Shown here piece by piece: positions 8,597 to 27,402 of a stretch of DNA of 64,000 nt (the stretch's first letter is position 1; the number at the start of each line of letters is the position of its first letter). A model generated the notes under the pieces. The model was not told the origin of the DNA and searched no databases. It was given only the letters and a program-made list of their open reading frames with translations. The position numbers were made by a program, and so were the translations under genes. The DNA comes from Clostridiales bacterium (lineage in GTDB: Bacteria > Bacillota > Dehalobacteriia > UBA7702): assembly GCA_040766525.1 (NCBI GenBank), contig JAXGQI010000001.1:45346-109345 (forward strand). Reading direction: 5' to 3'.

Positions 8597-8625
8597 TTGA
8601 CATTTAGCAAAAAAGCTGCTAATAT
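8597..8625 (+). promoter_or_regulatory. sigma-70 promoter (TTGACA-17-TAATAT) driving the riboswitch leader and the dapB-like gene
   Basis: Perfect -35 hexamer at 8597..8602, a 17 nt spacer, then TAATAT at 8620..8625. Confidence 0.6.
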
Positions 8626-8644
8626 ATCAACATAACATCGTGCT

Positions 8645-8775
8645 GAATATCTATTTTTATAGATAACGGGAGAACCAATCTTTTGGGGTGTATCCGATTT
8701 TATCGGAGGGAATCTTCAATCCCTAACCCGTCAGCTAATCTCGTAAGCATTTGAAGGGGAGTTATTCTCTGATTT
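8645..8775 (+). ncRNA. c-di-AMP riboswitch (ydaO/kimA class) in the leader of the dapB-like gene
   Basis: The 5' element ACGGGAGAACC...TTGGGGTG and the 3' element CCCTAACCCGTCAGCTAATCTCGTAAGCA...GAAGGGGAG match the remembered ydaO consensus (ACGGGGAGCC ... AACCCGxCAGCUAACCUCGUAAGC). Internal hairpins CCGATTTTATCGG and GGGAATCTTCAATCCC are present. Confidence 0.65.
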
Positions 8776-8779
8776 TTGA

Positions 8780-8812
8780 TGCGCGCACATGTTATGTGGG
8801 CGCATTTTTGTC
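8780..8812 (+). terminator. intrinsic terminator (riboswitch expression platform) just upstream of the dapB-like RBS
   Basis: GCGCGCACAT-GTT-ATGTGGGCGC hairpin followed by TTTTTG. Confidence 0.6.
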
Positions 8813-8847
8813 GTTGATTTTAATTTTCGAAGAAAGGAGTCTTTTCT

Positions 8848-9711: not shown

Positions 9712-9741
9712 AATTCCGAAATCAACTGCAGCCGCAGTACA

Positions 9742-9778
9742 AAAGATGCCTGTGTATTCACACAGGCATCTTTATTTT
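9742..9778 (+). terminator. intrinsic terminator after the dapB-like gene
   Basis: AAAAGATGCCTGTGTATTCACACAGGCATCTTT followed by a T run. Confidence 0.6.
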
Positions 9779-9801
9779 TCACTTATACGCTTTTTTCTCT
9801 T

Positions 9802-11160
9802 TTACTCTTTTTTATCCGATGCTTCCCCAACATTTTCTTGGCACTGATTCTTCATCACATACATCCGATCATCGGCAATCCGCATAACCGTATTAAAATC
9901 ATGCCCCTCTTTCGGGAAAACGGCTTGGCCGATGCTAACAACGATGGGGATCTTATGCTCTTGATATCTGAATTCCTGCGCAAGATCTTTCTCCATCTGT
10001 TTACTAATCCTATCTATTTCCTCAGCGGTGTCCAAATGGCTAAAGACAACAAGGAACTCGTCTCCGCCCAATCTAAAGATCGCACCCTGCTTCCAGTACA
10101 TCCTCGTCAATTCATTCGCGATATGCTTTAAGACCTCATCGCCAACATGATGGCCATAATGATCGTTGATCGATTTGAACCGATCCACATCTAAAACAAT
10201 GATCCCAATGAACTTATCTTTGTTATAGATATTGAAAATATTTTCCTCATAATAGTCCAAATAGCGCCGATTGAAAAGATTGGTCAAACCGTCAATATTA
10301 GCTTGTTTTTTCACTTGGATGTTTTTCTGATGACTGTAAGCGAATAAGACACCGAAAATCAGGGAAAACAAAATCGAAATGACATAAAACGCCGGCATAA
10401 TCTGGTCAATCAGATCATCATGTTTCGCGGAAATCGCCAAGATATATGAAGAATCGAAAAACTGATCGTTTCGGTGATATGGTCATCATCGACGATGGCG
10501 GGATCACTAAAAAATCAAACTTCGGGCTTCATCATTTTTGTACATCGCGACATTTAAATCCCTGAAGCTCTGGCGTATTGCAGGAAAACACTGTTCACCT
10601 CGTCCGCTTTTAAGACGATACTGATTTGCCCCCAATACTCACCTTCCGAGATAAACGGCGCGCGGGCGATATACCCCTTCCCACCCTGTACCAAATCAAT
10701 AGGACCGATAAAACCGGCTCCAGAGTTTCCTTCACTTTCAAGATACTATCTCTGTTCGATTCCACTTTGGCCAAATCCACATTGATGACGGTCAGCTTCT
10801 TCCTCTGGATAAACGAACAGCATCGTGGTATCTTTGATAATGCCGATATTTAAAATCAACTCATCTTCTTCCAGAAGAGTATCCAAATACACTACGGTCA
10901 ATTCATCCGATAAGGTTTTGGATACTTTCTCCAAGGAGATGATATAGGCTTGATAACCTTTCAAAAGATTTAGTTTGGATTTTATCGTCTCTTCAAAAAA
11001 ATTTGCAACATCATTGACATTTTGCATCGCATTAATATTGTCTTTTTGTTTTTGAACTTGATCGTCGTGTATGTAATCGCATAAAATAGATGAACATACG
11101 ATAAAAATAATAATCCCGTAGATAACCGATTTGTAGAGCGACTTTTTCATTACATCTTTC
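9802..11160 (-). pseudogene. TM / dCache-like sensor / TM / GGDEF diguanylate cyclase, broken by at least 3 frameshifts between 10440 and 10600
   Basis: ORF 10746..11300 gives TM1 and a periplasmic domain. The continuation GPIDLVQGGKGYIARAPFISEGEYWGQISIVL and NVAMYKNDEARSLIF lie in other frames. Then comes TM2 (MPAFYVISILFSLIFG) and the GGDEF domain (RLGGDEF) in ORF 9802..10440. Shifts fall at A6 and T6 runs. Confidence 0.7.
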
Positions 11161-11510: not shown

Positions 11511-14100
11511 TTATTCCTTGATTTCCGCCACATTTTCACTTTCTTCTTCCAAAATTCGAACAAAAACCCCCACGACGCGGGGATCAAATTGGGAACCGGA
11601 ACAACGCCATAATTCTTTGATGGCGTCTTCGTCATTCAATGCCTCTCTATAAGGCCGATCCGCGGTAATCGCATCATAGGTGTCCGCCACCGCCAAGATT
11701 CTTGACTGGATAGGGATTTCTTCACCCTTTTGGCCGTTCATATATCCTTTTCCATCCCATCTTTCATGATGATGCAACACAACCTCGGCAATCCCCCTAA
11801 ACTCCTGGCTGCTGCCAAGAATGCGCCAACCGATTTCGGCATGGGTTTTGATAATATCATATTCTTCAGTCAGAAGTCTCCCCGGCTTATTCAAAATTCT
11901 TTCCGGAATACCGATCTTGCCGATATCGTGGAGCAGTCCCGCTAATTTGATCTCATCAATCACATTCCGCTCCAGCCCCAAAGCAATCGCTACTTTCTCC
12001 GCGATAATACTTACGCGGCGGGAATGTTCCATTTCCCGCTTACTCTTTGCAAACAAAGCATTCATAACAAGCAGCACCGATTGATTCCGAATGCTGTGAA
12101 CTTGCATCATTTTACGGCGGAACATGTAATCCTCCGCCTCGGTCAAAACTTCTTCCAATTTTTTATCCGGGTCAGACTTGGTTTGGAATCCCAGTGAAAC
12201 AGACACTTGATATTGATCCGATAAATGCTTTTGCTCTGCGATTTTGACCCGTTCGATCATCTCGAGGGCTTCTTTATCACCGCAATTTGGCAGGATAACG
12301 CCGAATTCATCTCCCCCGATTCGGGCGACGGTATAGGAATGCCGGGTGGATTTCTTCAAAATTTTAGCTACGCTCTTCAAAATCTTGTCTCCCACCTGAT
12401 AACCGAAAATATCATTGGCGGTTTTCAACCCGTTCACATCGCCGACAATCACCGCATACGGCAATTTCTTCGTTTTTTCCAACCGCGCCAATTCACTTTC
12501 AAAATACCGGCGATTATATAAACCGGTCAAATAATCATGATCGCTGATATAGCGTATCTCCTCATAGGCCTTTTCTCTTTCCGTAACATCGAAAATAATA
12601 GAATAGAGCAGCGTTTCGCCATCGAAATTGATCGGGCAGGAATACACGTCCACCGTTCGAAGCTCACCGGTTTTCAGACGATGCGGAAAGGTAAAATATT
12701 TCTGTCCTTTTTTTAGGGCTTTCATCCGCAGCCGCGCAATCTCAGCTTCATCCAAAGTATTGATATCTTGAATCGTCATATGGAGCAGTTCATCCTTAGA
12801 ATAGCCGTAATAGGCAGACGCCGCCGGATTGCAGTCCCGGATCTTGCCCGTTAACGGCTCGAGCAACAACATAACGGCCTCATGGCCGTTAAACATCGCT
12901 TCCATTTGATGGGCCAGCGCTTCCGCCTTCAACTGGCTGTTTTTATTCTCCACGGCCAACCAAACGCCGTTCATCAGCATGATCATCTCATAAACATCGG
13001 CGTCGTCATAATCGAAATCCTTGTTCCCGAACCCCACCACGGCAACGATCTTATTATCGACAAACATGGGGATCGACATATATCGTTTTAAAGGGATATG
13101 CCCCACGGGGAATCCTCTTTTGGCCGGATTGGGTTGTTCAAAATCATTGATGATGAGGGGTTTCCGATAGCGAACAACATCCCCCCAAATACCGGTATTT
13201 TCTAATTTATATTCCGTTTTCTGATCTTTAACAGCACAGGCATCAAGCACTCGTTTGTCCAAGCGTGGTTAGTAAATTCCTTTTGTTTTCATCATAAAAG
13301 AAGATATAACCGTATTTCGGACTTTTGTCAATTCCAAAAGCTTCTGTAGGCATACCCAAGCTGATCTTGGGTATTTTCAAAGTCTCTCAGCAAGCATCCG
13401 GTAATGATGCGATTCCGCTCCGCAAACTTCGGATCTGCTCTTCCCGCTGCTTCTCCTGGGTGATATCGCGAATATAGGAGCCGACCCCAATTTTATCGTT
13501 GCCAATGGGAACAGGGAATTTTACTGCTTCATATCTACTCTCTCCTATCGCCTCATAAAAGACAAGGGTCTCATTTTTCCGCAATACTTCCTGATCACTT
13601 CTGCGGCACTCCGCAGCGGCCGCTTGGGGCAATAATTCGAAATCGGTTTTACCGATCAAACTCTCCATATCCTGTTGAAAAAACTCCGCGACTTTTTGAT
13701 TGGAAAGAACAACGCGAAACCGATCATCTTTCAGAAGGATCATGGATTGGCTGGCATTGATATATTTTTCATACTTTTTTCTTTTTTGGATCAGCTCATT
13801 TTCAAATGCCTTTTTCTTCTGTGATATCTTGGCAGAATCCCAGATAACGATCTTCCTCAATTTTTCTGGTATTGACCACAACCCAACGCACTTCTCCTGC
13901 CTTTGTACAATAACGGGTTTCATGTGCAGTACCGCCACCAGTATCAATGATCGTATTGGCGTACCGGTGATTTTTGCATATCCTCAGCAACAAAAGATCC
14001 AGGATATTCATTTGCCTTAATTCCGCCTCTGTATATCCTGTAAGTCGGCACACTGCAGTATTGATATCCAAGCACTGTCCACTACCATTAACTAAAAAAC
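11511..14100 (-). pseudogene. large PAS-PAS-GAF-PAS-GGDEF-HD-GYP c-di-GMP signalling protein, interrupted by several frameshifts
   Basis: ORF 11511..13262 holds the GAF C-terminus, a PAS domain, GGDEF (RIGGDEFGV) and HD-GYP (HHERWDGKGY). ORFs 13387..13947 and 13802..14071 are PAS domains in other frames. The GAF N-terminus lies between 13262 and 13387. Confidence 0.65.
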
Positions 14101-15049
14101 TCCATAAGGAGTAATATCAAAATAGCGTTCACACCAATATCCGCTTTGGGCTCCCTCTTTTGGCCGGCACGGGCTCCCCCCCATTGATCATAACAATGCG
14201 GTGCCCTTTTTCCCTCGGAAAGGAACGCAAAACAAAACCACAGATCCCCCCATACGAGCGTCTTGGTAAATTCGTTTTCCTCAGCAGATAGGATCGCATT
14301 CCCAACGAACGCAAATAAATCATGGTCCGGGACGATGCCGAAAACCAAATCCGTCATCCGCTTCCCGATAAAAACCGTCTCTTCCAAACCAAACAGTTCA
14401 ACTAAAGCCATTGACCTCAACCACTTCATAATCACATGGAAATTCGGAACAATCCTCAAGAATCCTTAAAAGAGCATATCCTGTTGGCCTTAATTCCCCA
14501 CCCAACCCTACATTCATCTTGATCTACCTCTAAATATGTTTTTGCTTAAAGCTGTTTCCAAAGCATGTCATCTGCAAAAGCATAAAAGACGATGACATCC
14601 ATCGCAGACCGAAAACCACCTGGGTCTATACTGTTTGTCATGAATCCTAGCGCGAAAATGCCCGCTCTATGATCCGCATCGCCGATATCTTTGGCTGCAT
14701 TATTCTTCCTGATGCGATCAAGGGGCCGCATGCTTAGTCGATTATTGTAAGCATATCAACTATTTTGTTTATTATAGCATAGATTTCCTCATCTGCTCAA
14801 CAGAAAATTATAGTTATTCAAAAAATTGTGATGATTATTATTGCAATAAACACATTGAACCGAAAAGGAACCCCAACCGCCGCCGATCCAAACCCTTGGG
14901 CAAGTGTAGAAACCCGAATTTCCCTCGATAATTATGCTAATTGATCGAAAATAACGACTTGGTTTCTGCCTCTCCTGCCACTTGCGAGGAACCCTTCCGA
15001 TAACAGGCTCCTTTCGCCAAAATGGGCGAAGCCCTCGCAAAACAACAAT

Positions 15050-15078
15050 AAAAGAGCTTCGGTTATAAACTGAAGCTC
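15050..15078 (-). terminator. hairpin GAGCTTCGGTTATAAACTGAAGCTC with a T run on the minus strand
   Basis: Near-identical copy of the hairpin at 15228..15262; see the finding on this pair. Confidence 0.4.
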
Positions 15079-15227
15079 CAGATTGTCGACAAAGTCGACA
15101 AGATGAGAGACATAAGACAAAGGCCAAGAGCTAGGAAAAGCAAAGTCCCTGGACGCGTAGCGTATATGGACATACGAAAGCGGTCAGGGGCTTTGATTTG
15201 ACAACGCTATCGGCTTTTGCCTAGTAT

Positions 15228-15262
15228 AAAAGAGCTTCGGTTTATAACCGAAGCTCTTTTTA
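15228..15262 (-). terminator. bidirectional intrinsic terminator downstream of mttB (AAAAGAGCTTCGGTTTATAACCGAAGCTCTTTTT)
   Basis: Perfect 10-bp stem flanked by an A run and a T run, about 80 nt after the mttB stop. Confidence 0.65.
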
Positions 15263-15340: not shown

Positions 15341-16808
15341 TTACTTTAAACCGTATTCTTCCTTTGCTTCTTCAATGATGTCTTGGAAACCGGCTTCTAC
15401 TCCGGGAGCCAAAGCGGGAACTTTGTGGCTCGCCAAAATTCTGGCAGCTTCCGCATAGGCTCTTTCCGCCAGATCGGTTTTCCCTTCCAATTCCCAAGTT
15501 TCTCTCATTGTACGGCAGAACAATTTGCTCGTGCTCTGTTCTTTGCGGAACCGTTCAAAGGTATGGGGATGGCTGACCATTTCCCCACCGGGACCCACTT
15601 CTTTGATCAAATCAACAGCCAGATTATCATCGGTGATCTTGATCCCTGCGATAACCCGTTTAATCATCGTATAAATCTCATTATCGATGACCAATTGGGC
15701 AAAGTCGAAGGTAATCCCCAGATCCAACATCCCCGCGCCGTAAATCAAGTTAGCGCCACCCTGGGCAGCTAAAAGAGCGGTCAATGTTTTTTCATGGGCT
15801 GCTTGGCCATCAGGAACTTTGCTGTCTGCCTAACCACCCGCTACGAAACTGGGCAGTTTATAGAATTGGGCCAAACGAGCAACGGAAGCGCTGATCATCC
15901 CCAATTCCGGAGCGCCTACCGGCGCCGTGGTATAACGCATATCCATAATCGTGGTGGAACTTGCATAGATGCAGGCCGCACCCTTCTTCGTCAATTGTGA
16001 AAGCACAATAACGCTAAGAACTTCGGCATTATGGGTAGCCAAGGTCCCCGCCAAGGTGACGGGAGAAGTAGCACCCGCCATCGCCATGGAAATAATATTG
16101 ATTGGAATACCCGCTTCCGCCGCCAACATCACGACGTCGGTGCATTCGGGAATCAGCTTTAATAAACTGGTGGGGCAAACATTAAAGGTAATCAGGGGGC
16201 GGCGCTTTAATTCTTCTTCGCCACCGGCAACCAAAGCAGCCATACGGATGATTTTCGCAGCATTCACGGCTCCATCAGGCCCGATAAAAAAGTGCTTGGT
16301 CGTATTAGGAAAATCGCTTCCGCATTGTGCAGAGCTTGAATCGGTCCGGGAATATCCTGGGAAGCGACAGCACGATAAGTGATATCCAAATTATCCAAAT
16401 AATCGCTTAATATGGCGGCATTTTTAAATCCTGTTTGGTGCTGGGACGATACTCTTCGTTTCCATATCGCGAACGACAACACCTTCACCGAAATTCACAA
16501 AACCGACCCGGTTCTTTTCAACGATATAATCTTTTTCAGGATCTCTTTGCGGCCAATAACTGATGGCGGCGCAGTCTTCACCGCGTCTTCCACAATATAG
16601 GAAGGGATGCGAACAATATGGGTTTTCGGGTCAACGACGCAGCCACCCGCCGCAAATCTTCCCGTGCTTCAACGCTGTCAACCCGAACGCCTACATTATA
16701 CAGAATATCAAGAGACGCCAAATGGATCGTTTCTAACTCATCTTGAGAGTAGCCAACGATACCGAAACTTCCTAAACCGTTAAAAACAGCCTGTGTGTTT
16801 CTACTCAT
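15341..16808 (-). CDS. mttB: trimethylamine:corrinoid methyltransferase MttB with an in-frame amber (UAG) codon at the conserved pyrrolysine position; the N-terminal half has about 4 apparent frameshifts
   Basis: C-terminal 290 aa are one frame. Plus-strand 15830..15832 is CTA, giving TAG on the minus strand, in the context [32 protein letters not shown]. The MttB motifs [32 protein letters not shown] and [19 protein letters not shown] are present. The N-terminus ([23 protein letters not shown]) and the middle pieces (ORFs 16578..16838 and 16264..16488) are in other frames. Confidence 0.75.
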
Positions 16809-16861
16809 ATTCTCCTCCTTTGTACATTTTCTTTGCAATTTTTACTACACGCATACTAATT

Positions 16862-16877
16862 GCAAATCATATGCCAT
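16862..16877 (-). promoter_or_regulatory. sigma-54 (-24/-12) promoter for mttB: TGGCAT-ATGAT-TTGCA
   Basis: The reverse complement of 16862..16877 matches TGGCAC-N5-TTGCW except the last base of the -24 element. It sits about 55 nt upstream of the mttB ATG. The palindrome TGCAATATTGCA and a direct repeat ATATTGCATTAAA x2 at about 16955..17000 are candidate activator sites. Confidence 0.55.
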
Positions 16878-17073
16878 GAAAGGAGGCGAAACAAAATATT
16901 TTCTCCCCTCTTGGAACAGGGCGTTTTCATTTACACAAAATGAAACGCCCCAATGCTACTGCAATATTGCATTAAACATGCGCTCATATTGCATTAAAAC
17001 ATTGTGGCGACCCTCATTTATATCAAGTTTTTTGGCTCAAATTGACTTTATGCTGGCGCTTTACCTAATGCGT

Positions 17074-18867
17074 TTACGCATTAGAATCATCCGCATCTCC
17101 GCTTGTTGCTTTCAATTTGTTCAAGATACGCACTACGGTGCTTTGATTGACCCCCAATGCTTGCGCCGCTTTATAGGTCGTCCCGAATTTTTCATAGGCG
17201 CCTTTAATCAAGAGATTTTCCAATTCGATCCGCGCTTCCTGCAAGGGAACGATCCCGGTACAGATGATATTCCCGGAAGAACGGGCATCGGTATTCAAAA
17301 CATCCATCAATGTGTCCACGGTGATGACGTCCGCTTCCGTCGTGAGGATCAAGCGCTCAATGATATGCATCAGCTCCCGCACATTACCGGGCCAAGCATA
17401 TTTATAGAGTTCATCCATGACCTCGGGATCAAACCGCTTCTTCTGATTGTACTGCAAATTGTATCGTTTCAAAAACATATTTGCCAAGGGCAAAATGTCT
17501 TCTTTGCGCTCACATAAAGGCATCAATTTCAAAGGGATCACATTTAAGCGGTAATAAAGATCGCCTCTGAATTCTCCCTTTTGCACCATTTCCTGAAGGT
17601 TTCTGTTTGTGGCGGCAATGATCCGCACATCCAAGGGGATTCTCTTCGTATCCCCGACCCTCGTAATGGTACGGTCCTGCAAAAACTCTAAGAGTTTTAC
17701 CTGCAAAGGCAAGGGCATATCGCCGATTTCATCCAAGAAAACGGTACCCATATTGGCCATCTCAATCTTGCCGATCCGGCCGTCTTTATCCGCTCCGGTA
17801 AATGCCCCGGATTTATAACCGAAAAGCTCTGTCTCCATTAAATCCTTGGGGATCAGGCCGCAGTTGATTTTCACAAAAGGCTGCTTATGGCGGTTGCTGC
17901 ATTGATAGATCAAATCGGCGACAACTTCTTTCCCGGTCCCCGATTCCCCTTCGATCAGCACCGTAACATCGGTAGGAGCGATTTTGGTAACAATCTTCTG
18001 GATGCGCTGCATTGCGGCGCTTTCAAACACATATTCTTTTTGATCGGCAACTCTTTGCCGCAGAATTTCCAATTCCCGTTTTTGCAGGTCGATCTCCTGG
18101 ATCATCCCGGCGATCTTTTCCAAAAGCTCATTGATCTCTTTGACGTCTTTGGAGGTGCTGAGGACGGATTTGATCTTGCCGTTCTCATCATAGATCGGCA
18201 TGCCGATGGCCATGATCAGTCGGCCGGAAGAAAGACGAACCGCGCATTCCGCACGCTTCCCGGTACGCAATACTTCCATCGTGATGCTTTGCGAAATGAC
18301 CTTATCCTTCTCCATATCCGCAACATGCCGCCCGATATAATCATTCAACTTGATTTGGCAGATCTGCTCACAACGAGGATTCATATATTGGATGAAGCCG
18401 TATTCGTCGGTAATAAAAATATCATCTTCCATGACGTCGAAAATCTGCTGAAAGAATTCGATCTTCAAATCTTTTTGCCAAAGCTTCCGCCTTGCATTCA
18501 TAACCAATTGGCGAAATTGCCGAAAACGATCAATAATCCCCAGGATGTCGCCCTCTTTATTGGTAATGACCGCAATATCGCTATTATAATCTTCTAATGA
18601 CGGCATACCCGTTTCATGGGATATGGAAATCGTTACAAAATCCACATCACAATTCAAAAGGGCCAGTTTCGTTGATTCCTGCTTCGTTCTAAAAAGGTAT
18701 TCCAACAGGTCAACGCGTCGGAAAACTTTTTTAGCCGGATTCGCTAAAATGATGAACTCCCATTTCGATGAGAGGAGTTCATCAAAAATGATCGCTTTAT
18801 TGCCGGAAAAGATTTTGAAATTTTTAATCAGAACTTCTTCCAGTTCAAAATAATCGCTATTCGTCAT
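17074..18867 (-). CDS. sigma-54-dependent transcriptional activator (PrpR_N-like sensor, PAS, AAA+ sigma-54 interaction domain, Fis-type HTH)
   Basis: GESGTGKEVVA Walker A, ELFGYKSGAFTGA GAFTGA motif, C-terminal HTH (AAQALGVNQSTVVRILNK); 597 aa intact. Confidence 0.85.
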   Translation of the reverse strand: MTNSDYFELEEVLIKNFKIFSGNKAIIFDELLSSKWEFIILANPAKKVFRRVDLLEYLFRTKQESTKLALLNCDVDFVTISISHETGMPSLEDYNSDIAVITNKEGDILGIIDRFRQFRQLVMNARRKLWQKDLKIEFFQQIFDVMEDDIFITDEYGFIQYMNPRCEQICQIKLNDYIGRHVADMEKDKVISQSITMEVLRTGKRAECAVRLSSGRLIMAIGMPIYDENGKIKSVLSTSKDVKEINELLEKIAGMIQEIDLQKRELEILRQRVADQKEYVFESAAMQRIQKIVTKIAPTDVTVLIEGESGTGKEVVADLIYQCSNRHKQPFVKINCGLIPKDLMETELFGYKSGAFTGADKDGRIGKIEMANMGTVFLDEIGDMPLPLQVKLLEFLQDRTITRVGDTKRIPLDVRIIAATNRNLQEMVQKGEFRGDLYYRLNVIPLKLMPLCERKEDILPLANMFLKRYNLQYNQKKRFDPEVMDELYKYAWPGNVRELMHIIERLILTTEADVITVDTLMDVLNTDARSSGNIICTGIVPLQEARIELENLLIKGAYEKFGTTYKAAQALGVNQSTVVRILNKLKATSGDADDSNA

Positions 18868-18971
18868 CGTCCGCCTCCGCTATTATTATAGTTGTTTTTG
18901 GGAGGAAGGTCAAACTTAAAAAAAATGGAGGATGTGTTAACATCCTCCAGGAAGATTGTCGGCAGATGATT

Positions 18972-20382
18972 TTATTCTCTATTGAGGGCTTTCTTGTAAG
19001 CTGCATCTACCGCTTTGGCATATTCTTCAGGAAGAGGATCGGTAACATGATTATGATACAAATCCAAAGCTTTTTCCATCGCTCTGTCATGGTAGGATTT
19101 TGGATCCGCATTCCAACCTTCATAGCTATTTCTTTCACAGAGGGTAGGTTTCCAAAGTTCGCTACGCAGGTAACGGATGGTATGCTCATTGCCTAAGAAA
19201 TTGCGTTCTCCGTTGACAACTTCGCGGATTGCTTCCACTGCCATGGTGTCCTTATTGACTTTTTCGCCTCTGACAGCGCGTTTAATAATGGAGGAAATTT
19301 CATCATCCATTACGATGGTACGATAATCAGAAATCAAAGCATTATCAAAAGCACCGGCGGTTCCTAAAATGCTGGCGCCGGTCAAGGCAGGAACGAGGGC
19401 GTTGAACATGCGTTCAAAACCGCTTTGTTCATCGGAAACCTTCGAGGAGCCGGAGAAACCGGTGGGTTCACTGGGAATCCCATAATAGAGCGCCATTTGA
19501 TGGGAACATGCGCCCGCCAAACCCATTTCAGGAGCAGCCCAAAGGCCAACAGCGGTTCTCATATCGATGAAAGTTACCCGAGGAGACATACACAGGGTGA
19601 CCGGGTTTCATCAACTGAGCGACAACAACGCCGGCCAGCATTTCCGCATTGTGCATCACAACGGAACCGATCAAAGTCATGGGGCTGGTAGCACCCATCA
19701 TGCAGCAGGGAATGATCCCCAAAGGCAATCCGGCTTCAACCGTATCAATCAAACCATTGGCGGGGCCTTCAGCATAGTCCAAGGGGCTAATGGGCGATAC
19801 TTGGAGATATGCGGTGGGTTTTGCCAACAAATTATCCATACCGCCAACTGCGGCAGCCAAGACTTCAGGAATATAGCGCATTTCATGATCGGATTCGATG
19901 CAAATGTGCAAAGGTTTGGAAGTATTTTTGACCTGAGCAACAACTTCCGAGGTGACAGCGGCATGTTCAGGAGCGTCTTTGGGGAAGATCGCGGAAACGA
20001 TGTCGATATTTTCCAAACCGTCGCAAACACGGACATGATCTTCCAAGTCTTTATATACGACAGGACGTCTTTCGCCTGTTTCAATATCAAGAATGAAGGG
20101 GCAGCCGATACAAGTTTGCGCATAGACTTCGCCGGAACCTAAATGAACGTCATTTTTGCCGTTTCTGCTGTAAAGGGTGAACTGGGAAGGAGCCGATTTA
20201 ATGGCTTTTTCCACCAATTCTCTGGTGAAATAGACGGTACCGTCTTTGACTTCCAGCCCAACTCTGGCGCAGGTTTCCAAAAATCTCTTGGAAGTCGCCC
20301 GCACACCTATTGTTTCCAAAATTTCCAATGTGGACTCATGGATCGCTTCAACATCTTCTTTGCTTAGATAATTGAACAACAT
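18972..20382 (-). pseudogene. MttB-superfamily methyltransferase without a pyrrolysine codon (MtgB/MtcB/MtpB-like quaternary-amine:corrinoid methyltransferase); one frameshift near 19560
   Basis: MttB-family similarity throughout (LSKEDVEAIHESTLEILETIGV, MGATSPMTLIGSVVMHNAEMLAG). The shift falls between VYVSSG and FIDMRTAVGLW. The Pyl-equivalent region reads YGIPSEPTGFSGSS with no stop. The start is placed at MLFNY, which has an AAGGAG RBS. Confidence 0.7.
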
Positions 20383-20581
20383 AATAATTCTCCTTTTCTT
20401 TTTGAAATAGCTATATTTTGGTCTCCGTTGGCACGAAGCACCGAAGCCGAATAAAATGGCATATACCGGTTGCCTTTTACCAAATGCGAACGCCTTCCTT
20501 ACATGCAGCCTGAGTTTTTTGTGGAACTTCCCACCGACCATTGGCTAGATCATGGAATCGCGCACACATCGATCTATTAAT

Positions 20582-20597
20582 TGCAAGATTTGTGCCA
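20582..20597 (-). promoter_or_regulatory. sigma-54 promoter TGGCAC-AAATC-TTGCA for the second MttB-family gene
   Basis: Perfect consensus on the minus strand, about 200 nt upstream of the ATG. The palindrome AATGCAA-CT-TTGCATT at about 20686..20703 is a candidate activator site. Confidence 0.65.
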
Positions 20598-20931
20598 TTA
20601 TTTCAAAATAATCAACTTTTTCTTACTCCCCCGCTAACGAAGGTTTTCAACTTCAAATTATTGTCATCATACGACAAAAGCAAATGCAACTTTGCATTCG
20701 CTTTCAACAAAAATCCCTATTTTGCACAAGATTTCACGGAAAAGAAAGATATTTTATCACCAATATCCCGCCATTATAGCAGATGATGTATCACCGCATT
20801 CCCAAATATGCGTATGTGCATTAGATTTATTTGCGCCGATCTCTCCGGCACGGAATCCCGTTGCCCTGCCCTCGTTTTTCAATGAGCGCCAAAGCAAACA
20901 CACCTACCCCAACAGTAACAATGGGGCAGGA

Positions 20932-22391: not shown

Positions 22392-23072
22392 TTACCGACC
22401 GATATCGTCAGTCTGTTCCACAAGATTCACGGTTACAACACCTTCGATTTTCAGCAGTTTTTCAACAATATCGCTGCCGACCTTTGCTTTTGCTTTATGG
22501 ATCCTAGCAAGGCGCAAGGTGTAGATGATCTCGCAAAACTCTTGGGAGGCATTCTTCATCGTCTGCTGGATATCTTGATCGAAATAGGTATTCACCGCGG
22601 CTTCCACCTTATTCTGCGCGCTTAAAGAACTCCTGACGATCAAGAGATATTTCGCATCGGGAGAGAACTGGCGCAAAGCGAATAAAAAGATAAAAACGGT
22701 AACGCAGCCAATGGCAGCCAAAACATATTGCGAAACCCCGCAACAGATCCCGACGGCGATCCCCCAAAAAATAAAGGTCGCATCACGGACATCCTTAACC
22801 GCCGTACGAAAACGGATAATCGAAAGCGCCCCAACCATCCCCAAGGAAAGCGCGATATTATTACTGATCACACTCATGACCGTGGCCGTAACGATCACCA
22901 GCATCCCCAGGGATACATTAAATTTTTTGCTATAGGCTGTCCCAGAATAGGTCAGCCAATAGGTGAACATAATGAAGCCGGATATCAGTAGCGCAACAAC
23001 ATTATTAAGGATAATCGTACTGATATTTAAAGCAGCTACATCCGTAAGGCTGGATAAGAGGAAATCTTTCAT
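22392..23072 (-). CDS. DUF4956 domain membrane protein
   Basis: Multi-TM N-terminus plus a C-terminal soluble domain typical of DUF4956, which is commonly found beside CotH/VTC genes. Confidence 0.55.
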   Translation of the reverse strand: MKDFLLSSLTDVAALNISTIILNNVVALLISGFIMFTYWLTYSGTAYSKKFNVSLGMLVIVTATVMSVISNNIALSLGMVGALSIIRFRTAVKDVRDATFIFWGIAVGICCGVSQYVLAAIGCVTVFIFLFALRQFSPDAKYLLIVRSSLSAQNKVEAAVNTYFDQDIQQTMKNASQEFCEIIYTLRLARIHKAKAKVGSDIVEKLLKIEGVVTVNLVEQTDDIGR

Positions 23073-23098
23073 CTCAAGTTCTCCATTTCTATATAATA

Positions 23099-23777
23099 TT
23101 AATAGTACAGACGAGATTGCGCATATTTGCTATTGGCATTGGGGGAAGAATCGATCAAACTAAGGACATGCTTAATCGTGCCGACCAGGAAATGATCATA
23201 CTTCACCTCCAAAACCCCTTGATCACCGGGGATCAAAGGGATAAAGCTCGGCTCCGGATCAAAAAAGTTTTGGGGGAAATAGGAAGCTGAAGTCCCGCTG
23301 TCAAAGGTGACACGGGTATCGCTGACCGGGTATTTATAGGCGATCCGGCGGTATTCGACGATGGTTTTCGGCAAATAGCCGCCGGTCAATAAACGCGTGT
23401 GTAAAGTTCTGGCCAAAGGATCTCATACTGCAACAAAAATCATAATCACAGTTGATCATCATTTGCGCTTCCGCCCTGGTGATCTTCAGTTTTCGCTTGA
23501 TGCTGTCGGAACCGGATTTACATTTATATTCCAAATTCGCAGTAGGGGCATCATAAGAATAGATGCGTAAACGCACCTTCCTCTTCTCCATGGTACCGTC
23601 GAGTTTATCATACAAATCACGGTCATCAATGGAATCAAAATATAAAGAACGGACCTTATAACCGTTGATCCCGCTGAAAGTATCGTATTCCATATAGTTT
23701 TCCAAAGTCTTGCGCAAGCGGAGAAAATCCACCTGCGACAAGGCATATTTGATTTCCTTGCGATAAAACCCTTCCAT
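23099..23777 (-). pseudogene. VTC (polyphosphate polymerase-like) domain protein, one frameshift
   Basis: ORF 23334..23777 (EIKY, RLRIY motifs) continues in ORF 23099..23416 (VTFDSGTS...LEVKYDHFL). Confidence 0.6.
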
Positions 23778-23809
23778 CGTGACTTATCCTTTCCATAAGA
23801 AAGTGTCGT

Positions 23810-24490
23810 TTACATTTTCACTTCTGTTCTAGTCGCCGCTTGCTCCGGCATCGCATCCTCATCCTGACGGAAAGAAATAAGCTTCCGCGGAATGAGTTTC
23901 TGCTTGCGATTGGTTAAATATTGCGTCAAGCAACCCAGAACACTTAAAACCAAAGTGGCAATCCATTGGACCGTCAAGAGATCGATCCCGGCGAAGAAGC
24001 TTTGGGCCACAAACTCCGTGCCGAAAAACCCCAAAATGACGCCGCCAACCAAGGAAGAAGATAAGACGATGACGTCAAAAGTTCGAAACAGCGCGACAGC
24101 GCCGAAGACAATCGCTACAATGGTAGCCAGCCACGGATCCGAGATAAAAAGTTGGCCTAAAACAAAACCCCATAAAGCGGAAATCCCCACGGCTCCGATT
24201 TTCCGCCAGAAGAAGGAAGCAAAACTCAATATCCCGCCCAAAATCGTGAAAGTGGCCACCACCGCGCCCCAGCCCATCCAATTTTGACAAAGCAAGCAAA
24301 TCAAAATGGCAAGGCCCATAAAGGAAAAAACGGAGAAAATGATCCGATACATTTTAAACCCGAAAAAGCAACAGAAAATGCCCAAAAACAAAGTAGGCCA
24401 CAAGAAGTCCGCAACCGATAAGAACAAACTATCGGTTGCCCGCAATGTTTCTATAAAATACAAATAAAAATGATAAAAGAAATTTTCCAT
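23810..24490 (-). CDS. hypothetical integral membrane protein
   Basis: 226 aa, 6-7 predicted TM helices; no recognised motif. Confidence 0.4.
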   Translation of the reverse strand: MENFFYHFYLYFIETLRATDSLFLSVADFLWPTLFLGIFCCFFGFKMYRIIFSVFSFMGLAILICLLCQNWMGWGAVVATFTILGGILSFASFFWRKIGAVGISALWGFVLGQLFISDPWLATIVAIVFGAVALFRTFDVIVLSSSLVGGVILGFFGTEFVAQSFFAGIDLLTVQWIATLVLSVLGCLTQYLTNRKQKLIPRKLISFRQDEDAMPEQAATRTEVKM

Positions 24491-24626
24491 GATCGTTTGC
24501 CTTTCCTAACCCACCGAATCCTATCGGAAAAATACGCTCAAAGCAAGCTGCATCATGCCGCAAACCAAAGTGAATTATTGCGCCAACCTCTTCATACGGG
24601 AATAGAAGAATCCGGCGTTAAGCTCT

Positions 24627-25637
24627 TTACCGATGGAACAGGATGAAATCCGTCACATGATAGTCCTCAATCAAAGCGTGAAAATCATCATAAGAGCCAT
24701 TGTACCAACTGGAACTCAGATAGATCACATTTTCATAATAAGGCGTTAACCACGTACATAAGATTTTCCCGGGATCATCGGCGTAAACGATGATGCTTTT
24801 CCCATTCATGATATCCCCTTTGATAATCGAATGAGAAACGTTACCTCCGATAAAGACGTTTAACACCGGACGGGATATATCAATCATCGGCGCTTCATAG
24901 ATATCATAAACCCCTTTGCTTTCCCGGTTCGTGATCAACTGGGAATTGGCCCCGTCCGCCAATAAATAAAAGGTCATACAATCTCTCAAATCCACATACT
25001 TCGTATATTGTCCGGTAAAGTTTTTTTTGTTTTCCTGATATTTAGAAAGCGCATAGGGTGTATAATTGGCCTCCTCCAAAAAGGTTTGGCAGGCATAATA
25101 AGCGCCCAGCTGCGTCCAGCTATCATCGGTGCGAAAATAAATATATTCATCGCGATGTGCCTGTAAATTACCTAATACATCCAGACAATGGATCTCTTCC
25201 GGCATCATCTCATAAATCTCATCGATCGCTTCGCCCTGATCATCCGTATAATCGCTGCAGCTCTCTTCCAAAGCAATACGAGTCGGGACGAGCATCACAT
25301 AAGGCTCCACCCCTTCCGGAAGGGATTGCAATAAACCGAGCTGTGCTTCGCCGCTCTCCTCTACCGCTTCCGGGTAATAATGAAAAACGCTGACCACACG
25401 ATCATCAAAGTAAATATAATTTTCCGTAATGCGATTGGGTTCCAAATCCAGCTCTGTACCGTAGGGTAACCCCTGTTCCCCGTAAACCGGGGCAACGACG
25501 GGATTCTCCGCAATGGATTGAATTTTATTATATAAAAATCCTGCGCCCATAGAAACAACCAAAATCCCCAGGATCATCCCAATGCTCAAGAGCAGCTTTT
25601 TCTTATTATCCGTCGAGTCCATATCCCATTTCTCCAT
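24627..25637 (-). CDS. DHHW family protein (membrane-anchored, exopolysaccharide/acylation-associated)
   Basis: N-terminal TM; DHHW-family similarity including a DHHW-like motif near the C-terminus (HVTDFILFH). Confidence 0.5.
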   Translation of the reverse strand: MEKWDMDSTDNKKKLLLSIGMILGILVVSMGAGFLYNKIQSIAENPVVAPVYGEQGLPYGTELDLEPNRITENYIYFDDRVVSVFHYYPEAVEESGEAQLGLLQSLPEGVEPYVMLVPTRIALEESCSDYTDDQGEAIDEIYEMMPEEIHCLDVLGNLQAHRDEYIYFRTDDSWTQLGAYYACQTFLEEANYTPYALSKYQENKKNFTGQYTKYVDLRDCMTFYLLADGANSQLITNRESKGVYDIYEAPMIDISRPVLNVFIGGNVSHSIIKGDIMNGKSIIVYADDPGKILCTWLTPYYENVIYLSSSWYNGSYDDFHALIEDYHVTDFILFHR

Positions 25638-27402
25638 GACCTTCTTTGTTTTCCGGTTGCATTAAAACCACATCGATCGATAGTGGAAAGCCTTTTGTTT
25701 CCCGCAAAGGCAAGGGATGAACGATCTGAACCGTTTGGCATGTCTCGCAATGATAAAAAGCATAATTGCCGACAGTTTCCACCTTTTCCGGTATCGTCAT
25801 TTGCCGCAAAGAAGAACAACCGTAAAATGCGCTGGTTTGGATCTCCGTTAACGATTTTGGCAAGGTTAGCGCCGTTAAACTGCTGCAATCCTTAAAACAA
25901 TGACTCATCAATACCGTTATCGCCATATTCCCGGAAAAATCCACCGTTTCAAGATTCTTGCAACCACAGAAAGCGGCGCTTCCCAAAGTCATTAAATCCT
26001 GGGGCAAGTAAACAACCTTTAACGCAGTGCAGTTTTCAAAAGCAGATTCTCCGATGCGGAGCAAATTCACACAATGCCGAAGATCCAATACTTCCAAACT
26101 TTCACAACCATAAAAAGCAAAATCCCCTATTTCCCGTAAAGTGCGGGGCAAAACCAGGGATTTGATCCCGGTGCATTGGAAAAAGAAGCTGCGCGGAATT
26201 TCGGTAGCGCCTTCGGGAATCTTAGCGGTTTCAATAGCAGCGTCATTACGAAAACCCACTTCATCCGTATTACGGTACTCCTCCAAAGAGGAAAAGCTAA
26301 GATCTGTTCGAACCGCAGGTCTTGGGGCAAAAGCCAATGTGCGCCCTTCTTTTCTAGTTCCGATGCCTTCGACGGTATCGGGGCAGATAAAACCACCGGC
26401 CTCCGCATTGACAAACCCATAGACCCTGGTCTTGTAGGAAAAAACGATACTCCCCCGTGCAATAACCGAGACAGTTTTCCCTTCTCTGCCAATCACAACC
26501 CCTTCTTCGGCAATAATATCGCCCTGGGTAAAAATCGCCCCCATCACCCAGGTGTTTTGGCCTAAAATTACATTACCTTCCGCAAAGATATTACCGCATA
26601 CCACCGCATTGTCGCAAAGCCGAACATTACGGTGGGAACGAATATCCCCCTGCACGACCATATCTTCGATAACTACCAGGTTCTTCCAAGTAACGACCGT
26701 TTTTTTGACGACTCCGTCCTCATCCATATGCGTATTGTCTACATAGGCAATACTGCGAAGAACTTTTGTGCTCACATGGGGATCGATTTTCTTTGTCATG
26801 ACCGGCGGCGTCGTTTCCTCTTCGGGATACTGCCCGATATTGATGATTGGCGCATAAAGACGCCTGAACTCACAGTTCGCACCGATCACAAGTTTTGTGG
26901 CGCTGCTCGCGCTGACGCCCAAATGACAATCGTCATAAATCGCCAAGGTACCGTAAGCATCGACCCAACGATCCACATAGATGCCTTCTCCCAAGATCGC
27001 GTCTTTTTTACCGCACAAGGCCCGAACATGCTTACAACCGGACAATACGACATTCTCTCTGGCGAAAATCTCTTTTTCAAAGGTTTCCACACCCAAAGGC
27101 GCAAATTCCTTTGCTTCCACATAAACCAGGTTCTCGCAAACCTCCGGAAGATATTCCGCTTTATCAGCTTCAATCATCGCCTCTTCTTTTGAAAGCTGAA
27201 TCTTTCCGCTGCCGTCATAACCCTGCAAATGCTTTTCCATCAAAGCCGAAAAAGATTTGCTAAAATAGCGTGGATCTTTGGTCTTCTTCGCGTCGATACG
27301 CAGTAATTTCACATGATCCCGTTTATAGGAAAACAAGCTACCGACCAAAGGGAGCAAAATCAAAATCAGAAATGCAATTACCGCTACGATCATGATTGCC
27401 AT
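25606..27402 (-). CDS. membrane-anchored bactofilin-like (polymer-forming) domain plus BspA-type leucine-rich-repeat protein
   Basis: N-terminal TM, a central left-handed beta-helix repeat region (NVRLCDNAVVCGNIFAEGNVILGQNTWVMGAIFTQGDII), and C-terminal LRR_5-type repeats (FxxCxxLxxVxLP). Confidence 0.5.
   Translation of the reverse strand: MAIMIVAVIAFLILILLPLVGSLFSYKRDHVKLLRIDAKKTKDPRYFSKSFSALMEKHLQGYDGSGKIQLSKEEAMIEADKAEYLPEVCENLVYVEAKEFAPLGVETFEKEIFARENVVLSGCKHVRALCGKKDAILGEGIYVDRWVDAYGTLAIYDDCHLGVSASSATKLVIGANCEFRRLYAPIINIGQYPEEETTPPVMTKKIDPHVSTKVLRSIAYVDNTHMDEDGVVKKTVVTWKNLVVIEDMVVQGDIRSHRNVRLCDNAVVCGNIFAEGNVILGQNTWVMGAIFTQGDIIAEEGVVIGREGKTVSVIARGSIVFSYKTRVYGFVNAEAGGFICPDTVEGIGTRKEGRTLAFAPRPAVRTDLSFSSLEEYRNTDEVGFRNDAAIETAKIPEGATEIPRSFFFQCTGIKSLVLPRTLREIGDFAFYGCESLEVLDLRHCVNLLRIGESAFENCTALKVVYLPQDLMTLGSAAFCGCKNLETVDFSGNMAITVLMSHCFKDCSSLTALTLPKSLTEIQTSAFYGCSSLRQMTIPEKVETVGNYAFYHCETCQTVQIVHPLPLRETKGFPLSIDVVLMQPENKEGHGEMGYGLDG

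Follow-up and report, generated by a model that had tools for sequence, protein, structure and literature searches.

Two MttB-superfamily methyltransferase genes and an enhancer-binding protein in a predicted sigma-54 cassette of a Clostridiales bacterium

Genes of the cassette and their reading frames

The window, meaning the whole 64-kb stretch of DNA that was analysed, contains two MttB-superfamily methyltransferase genes separated by the gene of a sigma-54 enhancer-binding protein (EBP). All elements of the cassette sit on the minus strand. The genes and the features at the ends of their transcripts are:

15227..15260, minus strand: intrinsic terminator after Pyl-mttB, AAAAGAGCTTCGG-TTATAAA-CCGAAGCTCTTTT, from sequence reading
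15341..16808, minus strand: Pyl-mttB, pyrrolysine-type trimethylamine (TMA) methyltransferase gene, with an in-frame TAG at 15830-15832 and a PYLIS element at 15733-15832
16919..16950, minus strand: 13-bp hairpin without a U-run, between the activator sites (UAS) and the Pyl-mttB promoter, from sequence reading
17074..18867, minus strand: intact EBP gene, 597 aa
18885..18913, minus strand: sigma-70-like promoter 5' of the activator gene, TTGACC-17-TATAAT, a consensus match (11/12)
18926..18949, minus strand: intrinsic terminator of non-Pyl mttB (10-bp stem, then T8)
18972..20382, minus strand: non-Pyl MttB-superfamily methyltransferase gene, PF06253 on both pieces, orthologue of 470 aa

The in-frame TAG together with the PYLIS_3 match (92 bits at 15733-15832) confirmed the identity of Pyl-mttB. 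Both mttB genes match PF06253 and TIGR02369, and the nearest solved structure to the non-Pyl protein is that of the glycine betaine methyltransferase MtgB (228 bits vs 202 for Pyl-MttB). Comparison with the intact orthologues at a related locus, L004, showed that both frames are broken, that of Pyl-mttB by five 1-nt deletions (at about 16657, 16566, 16458, 16422 and 16313) and that of the non-Pyl gene, whose protein is 86% identical to its L004 orthologue, by one 2-nt deletion near 19593. If these indels are real in both target genes, the module is defunct in this organism: the regulatory elements would be genuine but the cassette would be a decaying remnant, with two pseudogenes and an activator that is orphaned or acts elsewhere. 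Such decay would fit the lack of TauE and BCCT genes (present beside the cassette in relatives) and of genes for a cognate corrinoid protein, a methyl-corrinoid:THF methyltransferase and pyl functions in the 64-kb window, as well as the run of fragmentary PAS/GGDEF ORFs downstream of the cassette at 13387-15127. However, unrelated genes are split in the same way, their halves matching successive parts of one Pfam profile (CbiZ, 54954-56080; VTC, 23099-23777; radical SAM with SPASM, 44295-45343), and a tRNA at 7576-7650 has an anticodon loop of 6 nt. The mttB deletions lie in or beside short homopolymers, the frame-corrected peptides are 83-86% identical to those of L004 with no extra stops, and indel errors in long-read assemblies typically give such a pattern. 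Since the unrelated genes of the window are split likewise, the frameshifts are most likely assembly errors and not gene decay, and we regard the remnant as an unlikely explanation.

The intact sigma-54 activator with PAS, AAA+ and HTH domains that had been described between the two genes was found as such. It matches Sigma54_activat, AAA_lid_14, PAS and HTH_50 of Pfam, the last with 24.9 bits and hence under the gathering score of 27, and carries the GAFTGA, Walker A and Walker B motifs. An N-terminal CBS-pair-like domain (residues 1-135) is followed by PAS (~137-245), AAA+ with GAFTGA and the C-terminal HTH. The sensor domain gave no Pfam match even at E<=10, and its AlphaFold model (pLDDT 86) has structural matches to CBS-pair domains only; the sensor is modelled as a CBS pair with the PAS domain after it. 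The best full-length family is PrdR (NCBIfam NF041552), with residues 5-580 of the activator aligned to profile positions 4-571 of 577 at 388 bits (equivalog cut-off 795), and this full-length match implies the same overall architecture of N-terminal sensor, PAS, AAA+ and HTH. The PrpR_N-like sensor proposed in the earlier note was rejected on the basis of the Pfam search, the model and PrdR being the closest named family.

Predicted promoters and activator sites

The regulatory elements assigned to the two methyltransferase genes are:

16861-16876, minus strand: sigma-54 (-24/-12) promoter of Pyl-mttB, TGGCATATGATTTGCA, a match to TGGCAYN5TTGCW
16958..16998, minus strand: proximal UAS region of the Pyl-mttB promoter, with the imperfect site AATGCAATATTGCAGT and a half-site repeat 22 bp away
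17067..17082, minus strand: distal UAS of the Pyl-mttB promoter, AATGCGTAAACGCATT, exact AATGC-N6-GCATT, 206 bp 5' of the -24 TGG
20582-20597, minus strand: sigma-54 (-24/-12) promoter of non-Pyl mttB, TGGCACAAATCTTGCA, a match to TGGCAYN5TTGCW
20683..20698, minus strand: proximal UAS of the non-Pyl mttB promoter, AATGCAAAGTTGCATT (minus strand), exact AATGC-N6-GCATT, 101 bp 5' of the -24 TGG
20785-20800, minus strand: degenerate partner of the distal non-Pyl mttB UAS, AATGCGGTGATACATC, 22 bp downstream of it
20807..20822, minus strand: distal UAS of the non-Pyl mttB promoter, AATGCACATACGCATA, one mismatch to AATGC-N6-GCATT, 225 bp 5' of the -24 TGG

The -24/-12 promoters claimed for both genes were confirmed on the minus strand as the sole two matches to TGGCAYN5TTGCW in the window, one 5' of each MttB-family gene, oriented into it and at a suitable distance; the site at Pyl-mttB was right except for its position, which is 16861-16876 and not 16862-16877. 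The predicted leaders are ~43 nt for Pyl-mttB (ATG at 16808) and ~190 nt for the non-Pyl gene (ATG at 20382). Orthologous counterparts of the Pyl-mttB promoter were found in L004, L008, L013, L014 and L018, and those of the non-Pyl promoter in L004, L007, L014 and L018. No sigma-54 gene lies within the 64-kb window. As the patterns are short, and two promoter matches were also reached in 1 of 100 shuffles (0.11 matches expected from shuffling), the promoters and palindromes might be chance matches in AT-rich intergenic DNA, with a housekeeping sigma factor transcribing the genes. Yet promoter and repeat elements co-occur at both genes and recur at matching distances in seven other lineages, despite the divergence of the remaining intergenic sequence, and a sigma-70-like match is absent from the coding strand 5' of either mttB gene, whereas the activator gene has one. 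We therefore find chance very hard to believe.

Palindromes are present at both genes as reported previously, but their definition by TTGCATT did not hold, since this heptamer is not over-represented (18 observed vs 21.6 expected) and the element conserved in the cross-lineage comparison is the inverted repeat AATGC-N6-GCATT with the core ATGC-N6-GCAT. Its exact copies in the 64-kb window are confined to 17067-17082 and 20683-20698 (0.14 expected), ~200 bp and ~100 bp, respectively, 5' of the two promoters, and copies with one mismatch lie at 16958-16973 and 20807-20822. The palindrome AATGCAA-CT-TTGCATT does exist, at 20683-20698 instead of ~20686-20703. Inside the proximal Pyl-mttB region, TGCAATATTGCA is found at 16960-16971, and ATATTGCATTAAA occurs twice, 22 bp apart (16964-16976 and 16986-16998). 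Both TTGCATT and TGCAATATTGCA were discarded as activator sites, being by-products of AATGC-N6-GCATT.

The positions of the sites are shared with relatives. The proximal non-Pyl mttB site has equivalents at 100 bp in L004, 111 bp in L007 and 102-110 bp in L014, and the distal one aligns to the distal site pair of L004. The distal Pyl-mttB site, which overlaps the stop codon of the activator gene, has equivalents at 197 bp in L004 and 188 bp in L014, and the imperfect site AATGCAATATTGCAGT (16958-16973), 97 bp 5' of the -24 element, recurs in L004 at 98 bp as an identical imperfect ...GCAGT site. Alignment of the window with L004 leaves the promoters and the repeats as conserved islands. In 162 kb of loci, 27 of the 31 ATGC-N6-GCAT cores lie 60-260 bp 5' of 14 predicted sigma-54 promoters, in zones that make up 2.8 kb. 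The statistic is in part post hoc, as three of the nine loci (the window, L004 and L007) had served to derive the motif; of the 19 cores in the six loci studied later, 17 fall within the promoter-upstream zones.

Conservation and proposed mode of activation

The non-Pyl mttB, EBP and Pyl-mttB genes with their promoters and site layout were found in six other lineages, human-gut contigs included, usually accompanied by TauE and BCCT genes. The EBPs are 83% (L004), 66% (L007), 56% (L013), 54% (L008), 47% (L014) and 45% (L018/L019) identical to that of the window. The order mttB-EBP-Pyl-mttB is kept in L004, L013, L014 and L018/L019 (in the last, the non-Pyl gene is on the other strand), L007 has only mttB-EBP and L008 only EBP-Pyl-mttB; -24/-12 promoters are present in all of them. 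Gene order, promoters and the multi-site UAS are kept despite diverged surrounding intergenic DNA. Paralogous EBPs beside Pyl-mtbB/mtbC (L015 and L020) have three exact GATGC-N6-GCATC sites at distances like those of the mttB-linked sites (92-94, 170-172 and 193-195 bp). The outer base of the half-site follows the EBP subfamily, being A or C in mttB-linked and G in mtbB-linked cases, a change expected if the repeat is the operator of the activator.

We infer from these sequence comparisons that AATGC-N6-GCATT is the predicted operator of the adjacent activator. The repeats could instead serve another DNA-binding protein, e.g. a repressor, or form RNA hairpins or terminators, with the activator binding elsewhere and the -24/-12 matches either used or unused. 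The operator was assigned to the activator from sequence, the 17067-17082 site overlaps the end of the activator ORF, the proximal site of L015 and L020 lies inside a terminator-like hairpin, and TGT-N10-12-ACA, unlike this motif, is the site reported for PrdR, the closest named relative. Nevertheless, it is the half-site sequence itself, beyond mere pairing, that is conserved across lineages, while loops vary freely, U-runs are absent and an RNA hairpin with a stem of 5 bp would be very weak. Placed 92-245 bp 5' of sigma-54 promoters and paired at a spacing of 21-22 bp, the sites show classic enhancer and not repressor geometry, and the dependence of the outer base on the EBP subfamily also argues against another function, which we consider quite improbable. 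The separate hairpin at 16919..16950, matched in position by terminator-like hairpins in L008 and L015, may weakly terminate the activator transcript or stabilise its end.

The dedicated sigma-54/EBP module for MttB-superfamily methyltransferases that the earlier note proposed is supported by the conserved gene order, promoters and UAS and by the location of the cores. It is probable that the activator, via AATGC-N6-GCATT, switches on both mttB genes for methylamine/quaternary-amine demethylation. The three genes would form separate minus-strand transcription units of a compact regulatory cassette, the activator gene being driven by its own sigma-70-like promoter. Dimers of this putative one-component EBP would bind the 16-bp inverted repeats, one proximal site ~100 bp and one or two distal sites ~190-245 bp 5' of each target promoter. 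A signal at the sensor domains would lead to assembly of the ATPase ring and DNA looping, and the looped activator would open the sigma-54 holoenzyme complexes at both TGGCAY-N5-TTGCA promoters, turning on expression of the non-Pyl MttB-family enzyme and of the TMA methyltransferase that contains pyrrolysine. The regulon is presumably substrate-responsive, with TMA, a related methylated amine or a metabolite connected with it as the most plausible signal.

Relation to known systems

The window genes belong to the same superfamily as Pyl-MttB (TMA) and MtgB (glycine betaine), one with TAG and PYLIS and the other without a Pyl codon. Unlike most characterised MttB clusters, the window has neither an adjacent corrinoid protein nor an MT2 gene, and its ORFs, unlike those of the characterised enzymes, are interrupted in the present assembly. 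PrdR, which activates the proline reductase operon of Clostridioides difficile, is likewise a one-component activator that serves a clostridial catabolic operon and has several UAS. However, the score of the window EBP is far under the equivalog cut-off, prd genes are the targets of PrdR in place of methyltransferases, and its reported sites differ from the operator predicted here.

Several UAS, placed 100-250 bp upstream, are typical of the sigma-54/EBP regulons reconstructed for Clostridiales (Nie et al. 2019, PMC6615313). PAS-containing one-component EBPs adjoining their targets and the promoter consensus TTGGCATNNNNNTTGCT are further likenesses, and this agreement in layout counts for the sigma-54 cassette, although the main text of that study is without betaine, trimethylamine, methylamine, MttB, methyltransferases or corrinoids.

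The statement that no such regulon had been described was not borne out. MttB (COG5598) in Clostridia was predicted to be sigma-54 regulated in a survey (PLoS One 2025, PMC12316311), and the betaine/TMA methyltransferase cluster of Sporomusa sphaeroides KIAC has SigL promoters and sigma-54 regulators (mSystems 2025, PMC12456013). The supplement of the latter flags SigL-type transcription start sites for the mttC-mttB unit and pylS, adjoining a sigma-54 regulator, with strong induction by betaine. Normalized counts of mttC-mttB rose from 16 to 66,790 between the first and fourth RNA-seq conditions (taken to be H2/CO2 and betaine), whereas those of the regulator changed comparatively little (115-544 over four conditions). 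As in the window, a sigma-54-interacting regulator adjoins a gene of the trimethylamine methyltransferase family, the promoters are of the TGGCA-N6-TTGC type and a Pyl-dependent mttB is involved. In Sporomusa, mttC-mttB neighbours pylSBCD, and the mtgABC and grd genes are in a 58-kb cluster of their own, whereas non-Pyl mttB, EBP and Pyl-mttB stand together in the window without nearby corrinoid or pyl genes. A Sporomusa homologue, P0092, 44% identical, adjoins LarA and MFS genes and not mttB. The study gives neither an activator binding site nor a characterisation of the regulator domains, and our search turned up no publication describing the operator motif or the activator subfamily. The cassette is a good new example of an arrangement first reported in 2025, and not a new kind of system.

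The methyltransferase-activator cassette and its relatives

The minus strand carries all the relevant genes. They form three units (5' to 3'): non-Pyl mttB, a gene for an MttB-superfamily paralogue without a Pyl codon; the gene of a sigma-54 enhancer-binding protein (EBP); and Pyl-mttB, the gene of a pyrrolysine-type trimethylamine (TMA) methyltransferase.

ATG 20382 to stop 18972, minus: non-Pyl MttB-superfamily gene (MTTB/TIGR02369 by Pfam and NCBIfam)
18949-18926, minus: intrinsic terminator after non-Pyl mttB
18913-18885, minus: sigma-70-like promoter TTGACC-17-TATAAT, 5' of the EBP gene
18867-17074, minus: sigma-54 activator gene, 597 aa
ATG 16808 to stop 15341, minus: Pyl-mttB (MTTB/TIGR02369 by Pfam and NCBIfam)
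15260-15227, minus: terminator after Pyl-mttB

The cassette is surrounded by unrelated genes, with CotH, DUF4956, DHHW and an LRR protein upstream and PAS/GGDEF/HD-GYP signalling genes downstream. The idea of another sigma-54 activator (25606-27402) and of corrinoid/MT2 genes (22392-25637) was rejected, as the ORFs there encode the LRR protein, DUF4956, DHHW and CotH. No corrinoid protein, MT2 methyltransferase, pyl genes (pylTSBCD) or rpoN/sigL was found in the 64-kb window. Since a GAFTGA activator is present, rpoN/sigL is presumed to occur in the genome.

Elsewhere, the window carries molybdenum cofactor genes and a CobN/chelatase cobalamin-salvage cluster. A cobalamin riboswitch (88 bits, 58472-58644, minus strand) stands at the head of a long minus-strand operon encoding FecCD and ABC transporter proteins, CbiZ, a periplasmic binding protein, a 1240-aa CobN-type chelatase and ChlI/ChlD-like AAA/VWA subunits. 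This operon looks like a corrinoid salvage/remodelling cluster, which could matter to corrinoid-dependent methyltransferases. A c-di-AMP (ydaO-type) riboswitch (94.8 bits, 8631-8764, plus strand) lies directly 5' of an ORF (8848-9711) of the dihydrodipicolinate reductase family (DapB-like), seemingly an uncommon gene behind this riboswitch.

The assignment of Pyl-mttB in the earlier note was confirmed by an in-frame TAG at 15830-15832 (minus strand), directly followed by a PYLIS_3 element (92.4 bits, gathering score 38). The TAG position equals that in four related loci (L004, L013, L014 and L018). Pieces of the gene match PF06253 and TIGR02369, and PF06253 likewise matches both pieces of non-Pyl mttB. 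The frame of Pyl-mttB is broken by five single-base deletions relative to L004 (at about 16657, 16566, 16458, 16422 and 16313), and that of non-Pyl mttB by a 2-nt deletion at about 19593. With the frames corrected, both proteins share 83-86% identity with their L004 orthologues, and no further lesion is seen. Several unrelated genes of the window are split alike into two frames that overlap, their halves matching consecutive parts of one Pfam profile, and one tRNA has a short anticodon loop:

54954-56080: split CbiZ gene (profile positions 2-138 and 138-191)
23099-23777: split VTC gene (profile positions 2-110 and 134-230)
44295-45343: split gene, radical SAM followed by SPASM
13387-15127: PAS sensor fragments in split frames
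7576-7650, minus: tRNA (Rfam, 58 bits) with an anticodon loop of only 6 nt (CCGTAA)

Because of this short loop, ARAGORN assigned no anticodon to the tRNA. The gene probably encodes tRNA-Thr(CGU) and lacks 1 nt, which would fit assembly indels. The split genes across the window point to frequent indel errors of the assembly or to widespread pseudogenisation, and either bears on the reading of any broken ORF there. With the unrelated split genes and the 6-nt anticodon loop in view, gene decay seems less likely than an assembly prone to indels, and the mttB frameshifts are probably assembly errors.

The closest relative, L004, is an NCBI MAG with the accession GCA_032941855.1. The related loci are listed with the identity of their EBP to that of the window, their gene order and the coordinates of the TauE/SafE gene.

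L004: 83%; intact non-Pyl mttB (470 aa), EBP, Pyl-mttB, TauE (9551-10486)
L007: 66%
L013: 56%; BCCT, mttB, EBP, Pyl-mttB, TauE (8469-9434)
L008: 54%; EBP, Pyl-mttB
L014: 47%; mttB, EBP, Pyl-mttB, TauE (8481-9404), BCCT
L018/L019: 45%; mttB on the opposite strand, then EBP, Pyl-mttB, TauE (L018, 8472-9419), BCCT
L015, L016, L020: paralogous EBPs P0014 and P0033 adjoining Pyl-mtbB, a B12-binding corrinoid protein gene (mtbC) and TauE (L015, 9143-10075; L020, 9261-10181)

At least 22 contigs carry the EBP of L018/L019 (P0030), among them contigs from Hadza and other human-gut metagenomes. In most relatives, the gene 3' of the Pyl-methyltransferase gene (mttB or mtbB) encodes a TauE/SafE-family membrane protein, a candidate methylamine permease. 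The window has no such gene; directly 3' of its Pyl-mttB is a terminator. The intact non-Pyl orthologue of L004 contains no TAG, and Ser aligns to the Pyl position. The nearest solved structure to the non-Pyl MttB is MtgB, and BCCT transporters adjoin the cassette in L013, L014 and L018; both hint at a quaternary-amine substrate.

In Desulfosporosinus orientis and Sporomusa sp., EBP homologues of 44-45% identity have SSF/MFS and LarA/MFS genes as neighbours, so the boundary of the methylamine-control family falls near that identity and depends on the clade. A search of genome contigs with the EBP returned only distant EBPs (38-40% identity), and a search of metagenome contigs with the N-terminal/PAS alignment only two poor loci. 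A protein identical to the window EBP (P0001) is present in the protein collection, with no gene-call record on exact look-up.

Sigma-54-type promoters and the ATGC-N6-GCAT repeat

The two -24/-12 promoters proposed in the earlier note each stand immediately 5' of one of the mttB genes:

16861-16876, minus: TGGCATATGATTTGCA, upstream of Pyl-mttB
20582-20597, minus: TGGCACAAATCTTGCA, upstream of non-Pyl mttB

Both have the GG and GC dinucleotides exactly 10 nt apart, as in the consensus TGGCAC-N5-TTGCW, and they are the only two matches to TGGCAYN5TTGCW in 64 kb (0.11 expected from shuffles). They are co-oriented with the genes, leaving leaders of about 43 nt (Pyl-mttB) and 190 nt (non-Pyl mttB), and neither gene is preceded by a sigma-70-like promoter on its coding strand. 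A -24/-12 promoter is present in every related unit, mttB- as well as mtbB-linked; 12 further ones were found at equivalent positions in eight related loci, the two of L004 being TGGCATGAATATTGCA and TGGCATATGAATTGCA. By analogy with transcription start sites mapped in Sporomusa, transcription would start about 12 nt 3' of the GC element and depend on rpoN and the activator. That the 190-nt 5' UTR of non-Pyl mttB holds a riboswitch or structured leader was rejected: Rfam gave no relevant match, the folding z-scores were unremarkable (-0.55 in the window, -0.10 in L004) and leader length is not conserved (59-280 nt across loci).

The palindromes and the duplicated 13-mer that the earlier note described are present essentially where it placed them. 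The candidate operator TTGCATT is not enriched in the window, with 18 copies and 21.6 expected, and was replaced by AATGC-N6-GCATT. Alignments of the upstream regions of the window and L004 show conservation in islands, namely at the promoters and at copies of this 16-bp inverted repeat. Only two exact copies occur in the window (0.14 expected), and each is accompanied by a one-mismatch copy. The predicted upstream activator sites (UAS) are:

20683-20698: exact, 101 bp upstream of the non-Pyl mttB promoter
20807-20822: one mismatch, 225 bp upstream of the non-Pyl mttB promoter
17067-17082: exact, 206 bp upstream of the Pyl-mttB promoter, overlapping the EBP stop codon
16958-16973: one mismatch, 97 bp upstream of the Pyl-mttB promoter

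The sequence TGCAATATTGCA picked out earlier is the inner part of the imperfect site at 16958-16973, and L004 shares the imperfection (...GCAGT) at equal distance. In L007, three exact and one one-mismatch repeats lie upstream of an identical promoter sequence, in otherwise very AT-rich, unalignable DNA. A 13-bp hairpin without a U-run (16919-16950) lies between the UAS and the Pyl-mttB promoter, where the relatives have terminator-like hairpins; its role may be to terminate the activator transcript or to contribute to the shape of a DNA loop.

Across the loci the repeats have a fixed arrangement: on the upstream side of the TGG, the proximal site is at 69-111 bp and the one or two distal sites are at 167-245 bp, and paired repeats are spaced by 21-22 bp. 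Their core ATGC-N6-GCAT does not vary, and the outer base differs between lineages, being A in the window, L004, L007, L008 and L014, often C in L013 and L018 (the half-sites of L018/L019 are mostly CATGC...GCATG) and G in the mtbB-linked loci, each with three exact GATGC-N6-GCATC sites:

L015, 6741-6857: three exact sites; promoter at 6936
L020, 6741-6857: three exact sites; promoter at 6934

These sites are 92-94, 170-172 and 193-195 bp upstream of the promoter, the proximal one inside the terminator-like hairpin that closes the EBP gene. In nine non-redundant loci (162 kb in total), the zones from 60 to 260 bp upstream of the 14 promoters, 2.8 kb altogether, contained 27 of 31 cores. The motif had been defined on three of the nine; at the other six, 17 of 19 cores were inside these zones, so the enrichment is not circular.

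The activator protein

The intact activator with PAS and AAA+ domains that had been read from the sequence was borne out as a 597-aa protein. Pfam and NCBIfam matches comprise Sigma54_activat (PF00158, 233 bits), AAA_lid_14, PAS and HTH_50, the last at the C-terminus with 24.9 bits, below the gathering score of 27. The translation contains Walker A GESGTGKE, GAFTGA and Walker B VFLDEIGD. The C-terminal segment ...YKAAQALGVNQSTVVRILNK is conserved across the family, and within the HTH (residues about 560-585, window about 17110-17190) the recognition helix NQSTVVR does not vary. Just before KAA, mttB-linked EBPs (A/C-ATGC sites) have Tyr and mtbB-linked ones (G-ATGC sites) Arg or His, a hint that this residue may set the reading of the outer base and thereby operator specificity.

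A PrpR_N-like sensor (PF06506) had also been proposed, and this part did not hold: residues 1-135 gave no Pfam match at E<=10. An AlphaFold2 model of the N-terminus built from 22 homologous segments (pLDDT 86, pTM 0.76) has a CBS-pair-like fold. All PDB matches listed for it by Foldseek are CBS-pair (Bateman) domains, including MJ0922, MgtE, OpuCA and CBS (TM about 0.5, best E 5e-4). These matches and the lack of a Pfam match argue for a sensor made up, as modelled, of a CBS pair followed by PAS, and not of PrpR_N.

Proposed regulation and comparison with known systems

The sequence elements seen at the locus are rare and conserved; from them we infer activator binding, sigma-54 dependence and a signal as follows. 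The activator would be made from its own sigma-70-type promoter and its dimers would occupy the proximal and distal inverted repeats. A signal received through the CBS-PAS module would cause it to oligomerise, and ATP hydrolysis and the GAFTGA loop would open the closed complexes of the sigma-54 holoenzyme at both promoters. As a result, the quaternary-amine-type and TMA-type methyltransferases would be co-induced. The Pyl and non-Pyl MttB paralogues are thus predicted to be co-regulated as a unit, which hints at metabolically linked substrates.

Bacterial demethylation of TMA and quaternary amines shrinks the TMA pool for TMAO formation in the liver and feeds acetogenesis. To our knowledge, the switching-on of the genes concerned is almost unstudied. 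In the testable model that the locus and its relatives offer, one activator acts through a 16-bp operator, placed proximally and distally in a fixed arrangement, on a pair of sigma-54 promoters. The cassette also occurs in human-gut metagenomes. Taken jointly, the findings allow a broader reading, which we consider possible and put forward tentatively: an unnamed subfamily of CBS-pair/PAS activators is dedicated to Pyl-dependent methylamine methyltransferases. Its mttB-linked members would read (A/C)ATGC-N6-GCAT(T/G) and its mtbB-linked members GATGC-N6-GCATC; from this difference a simple operator code would follow, possibly set by Tyr versus Arg/His in the HTH. The subfamily would sense TMA or DMA directly and control TMA removal in human-gut Clostridia. 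If this is true, the motif together with a sigma-54 promoter could predict methylamine regulons genome-wide, pyl operons included, and the activators could serve as methylamine biosensors.

The best full-length NCBIfam model for the window EBP is PrdR (NF041552), the sigma-54 activator of the proline reductase operon in Clostridioides difficile. The score of 388 bits is below the equivalog cut-off of 795, which argues for a PrdR-like paralogue and not PrdR itself. Beside the window EBP are MttB genes and not the prd (proline reductase) genes expected for PrdR, and its putative targets differ from those of PrdR. The predicted operator ATGC-N6-GCAT also differs from that of PrdR, reported as TGT-N10-12-ACA (PMC6615313).

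Our literature search on MttB and sigma-54 retrieved no direct report, and two papers from 2025 that bear on the idea. In Sporomusa sphaeroides KIAC, mapping of transcription start sites revealed 24 SigL promoters (TGGCA-N6-TTGC), several of them in a betaine cluster with sigma-54 regulators and betaine and trimethylamine methyltransferases (PMC12456013). The sigma-54 regulator KIAC18_001665 adjoins a corrinoid protein/TMA methyltransferase unit, TU-1047, whose start site, like that of the neighbouring pylS, is flagged SigL (PMC12456013 supplement). Normalized counts of the TMA methyltransferase rose from 16 in the first RNA-seq condition to 66,790 in the fourth (PMC12456013); we read these two conditions as H2/CO2 and betaine. 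Among the sigma-54 targets that a PSSM survey predicts for Clostridia is MttB (COG5598) (PMC12316311). The main text of a 2019 reconstruction of Clostridiales sigma-54 regulons (PMC6615313) does not mention MttB-type methyltransferase genes, and none of the three papers defines the operator or domain type of the activator. The elements described in the earlier note are real, and the sigma-54 regulon that it proposed is well supported by comparative evidence but not the first of its kind: the 2025 papers already report (PMC12456013) or predict (PMC12316311) sigma-54 control of mttB, and our advance is incremental. The locus is another case of this recently described sigma-54/EBP control of MttB-family genes, to which it adds the conserved cassette, the ATGC-N6-GCAT operator with its geometry, the variant of that operator specific to the mtbB-linked paralogues, the modelled CBS-PAS sensor and the occurrence in human-gut bacteria.
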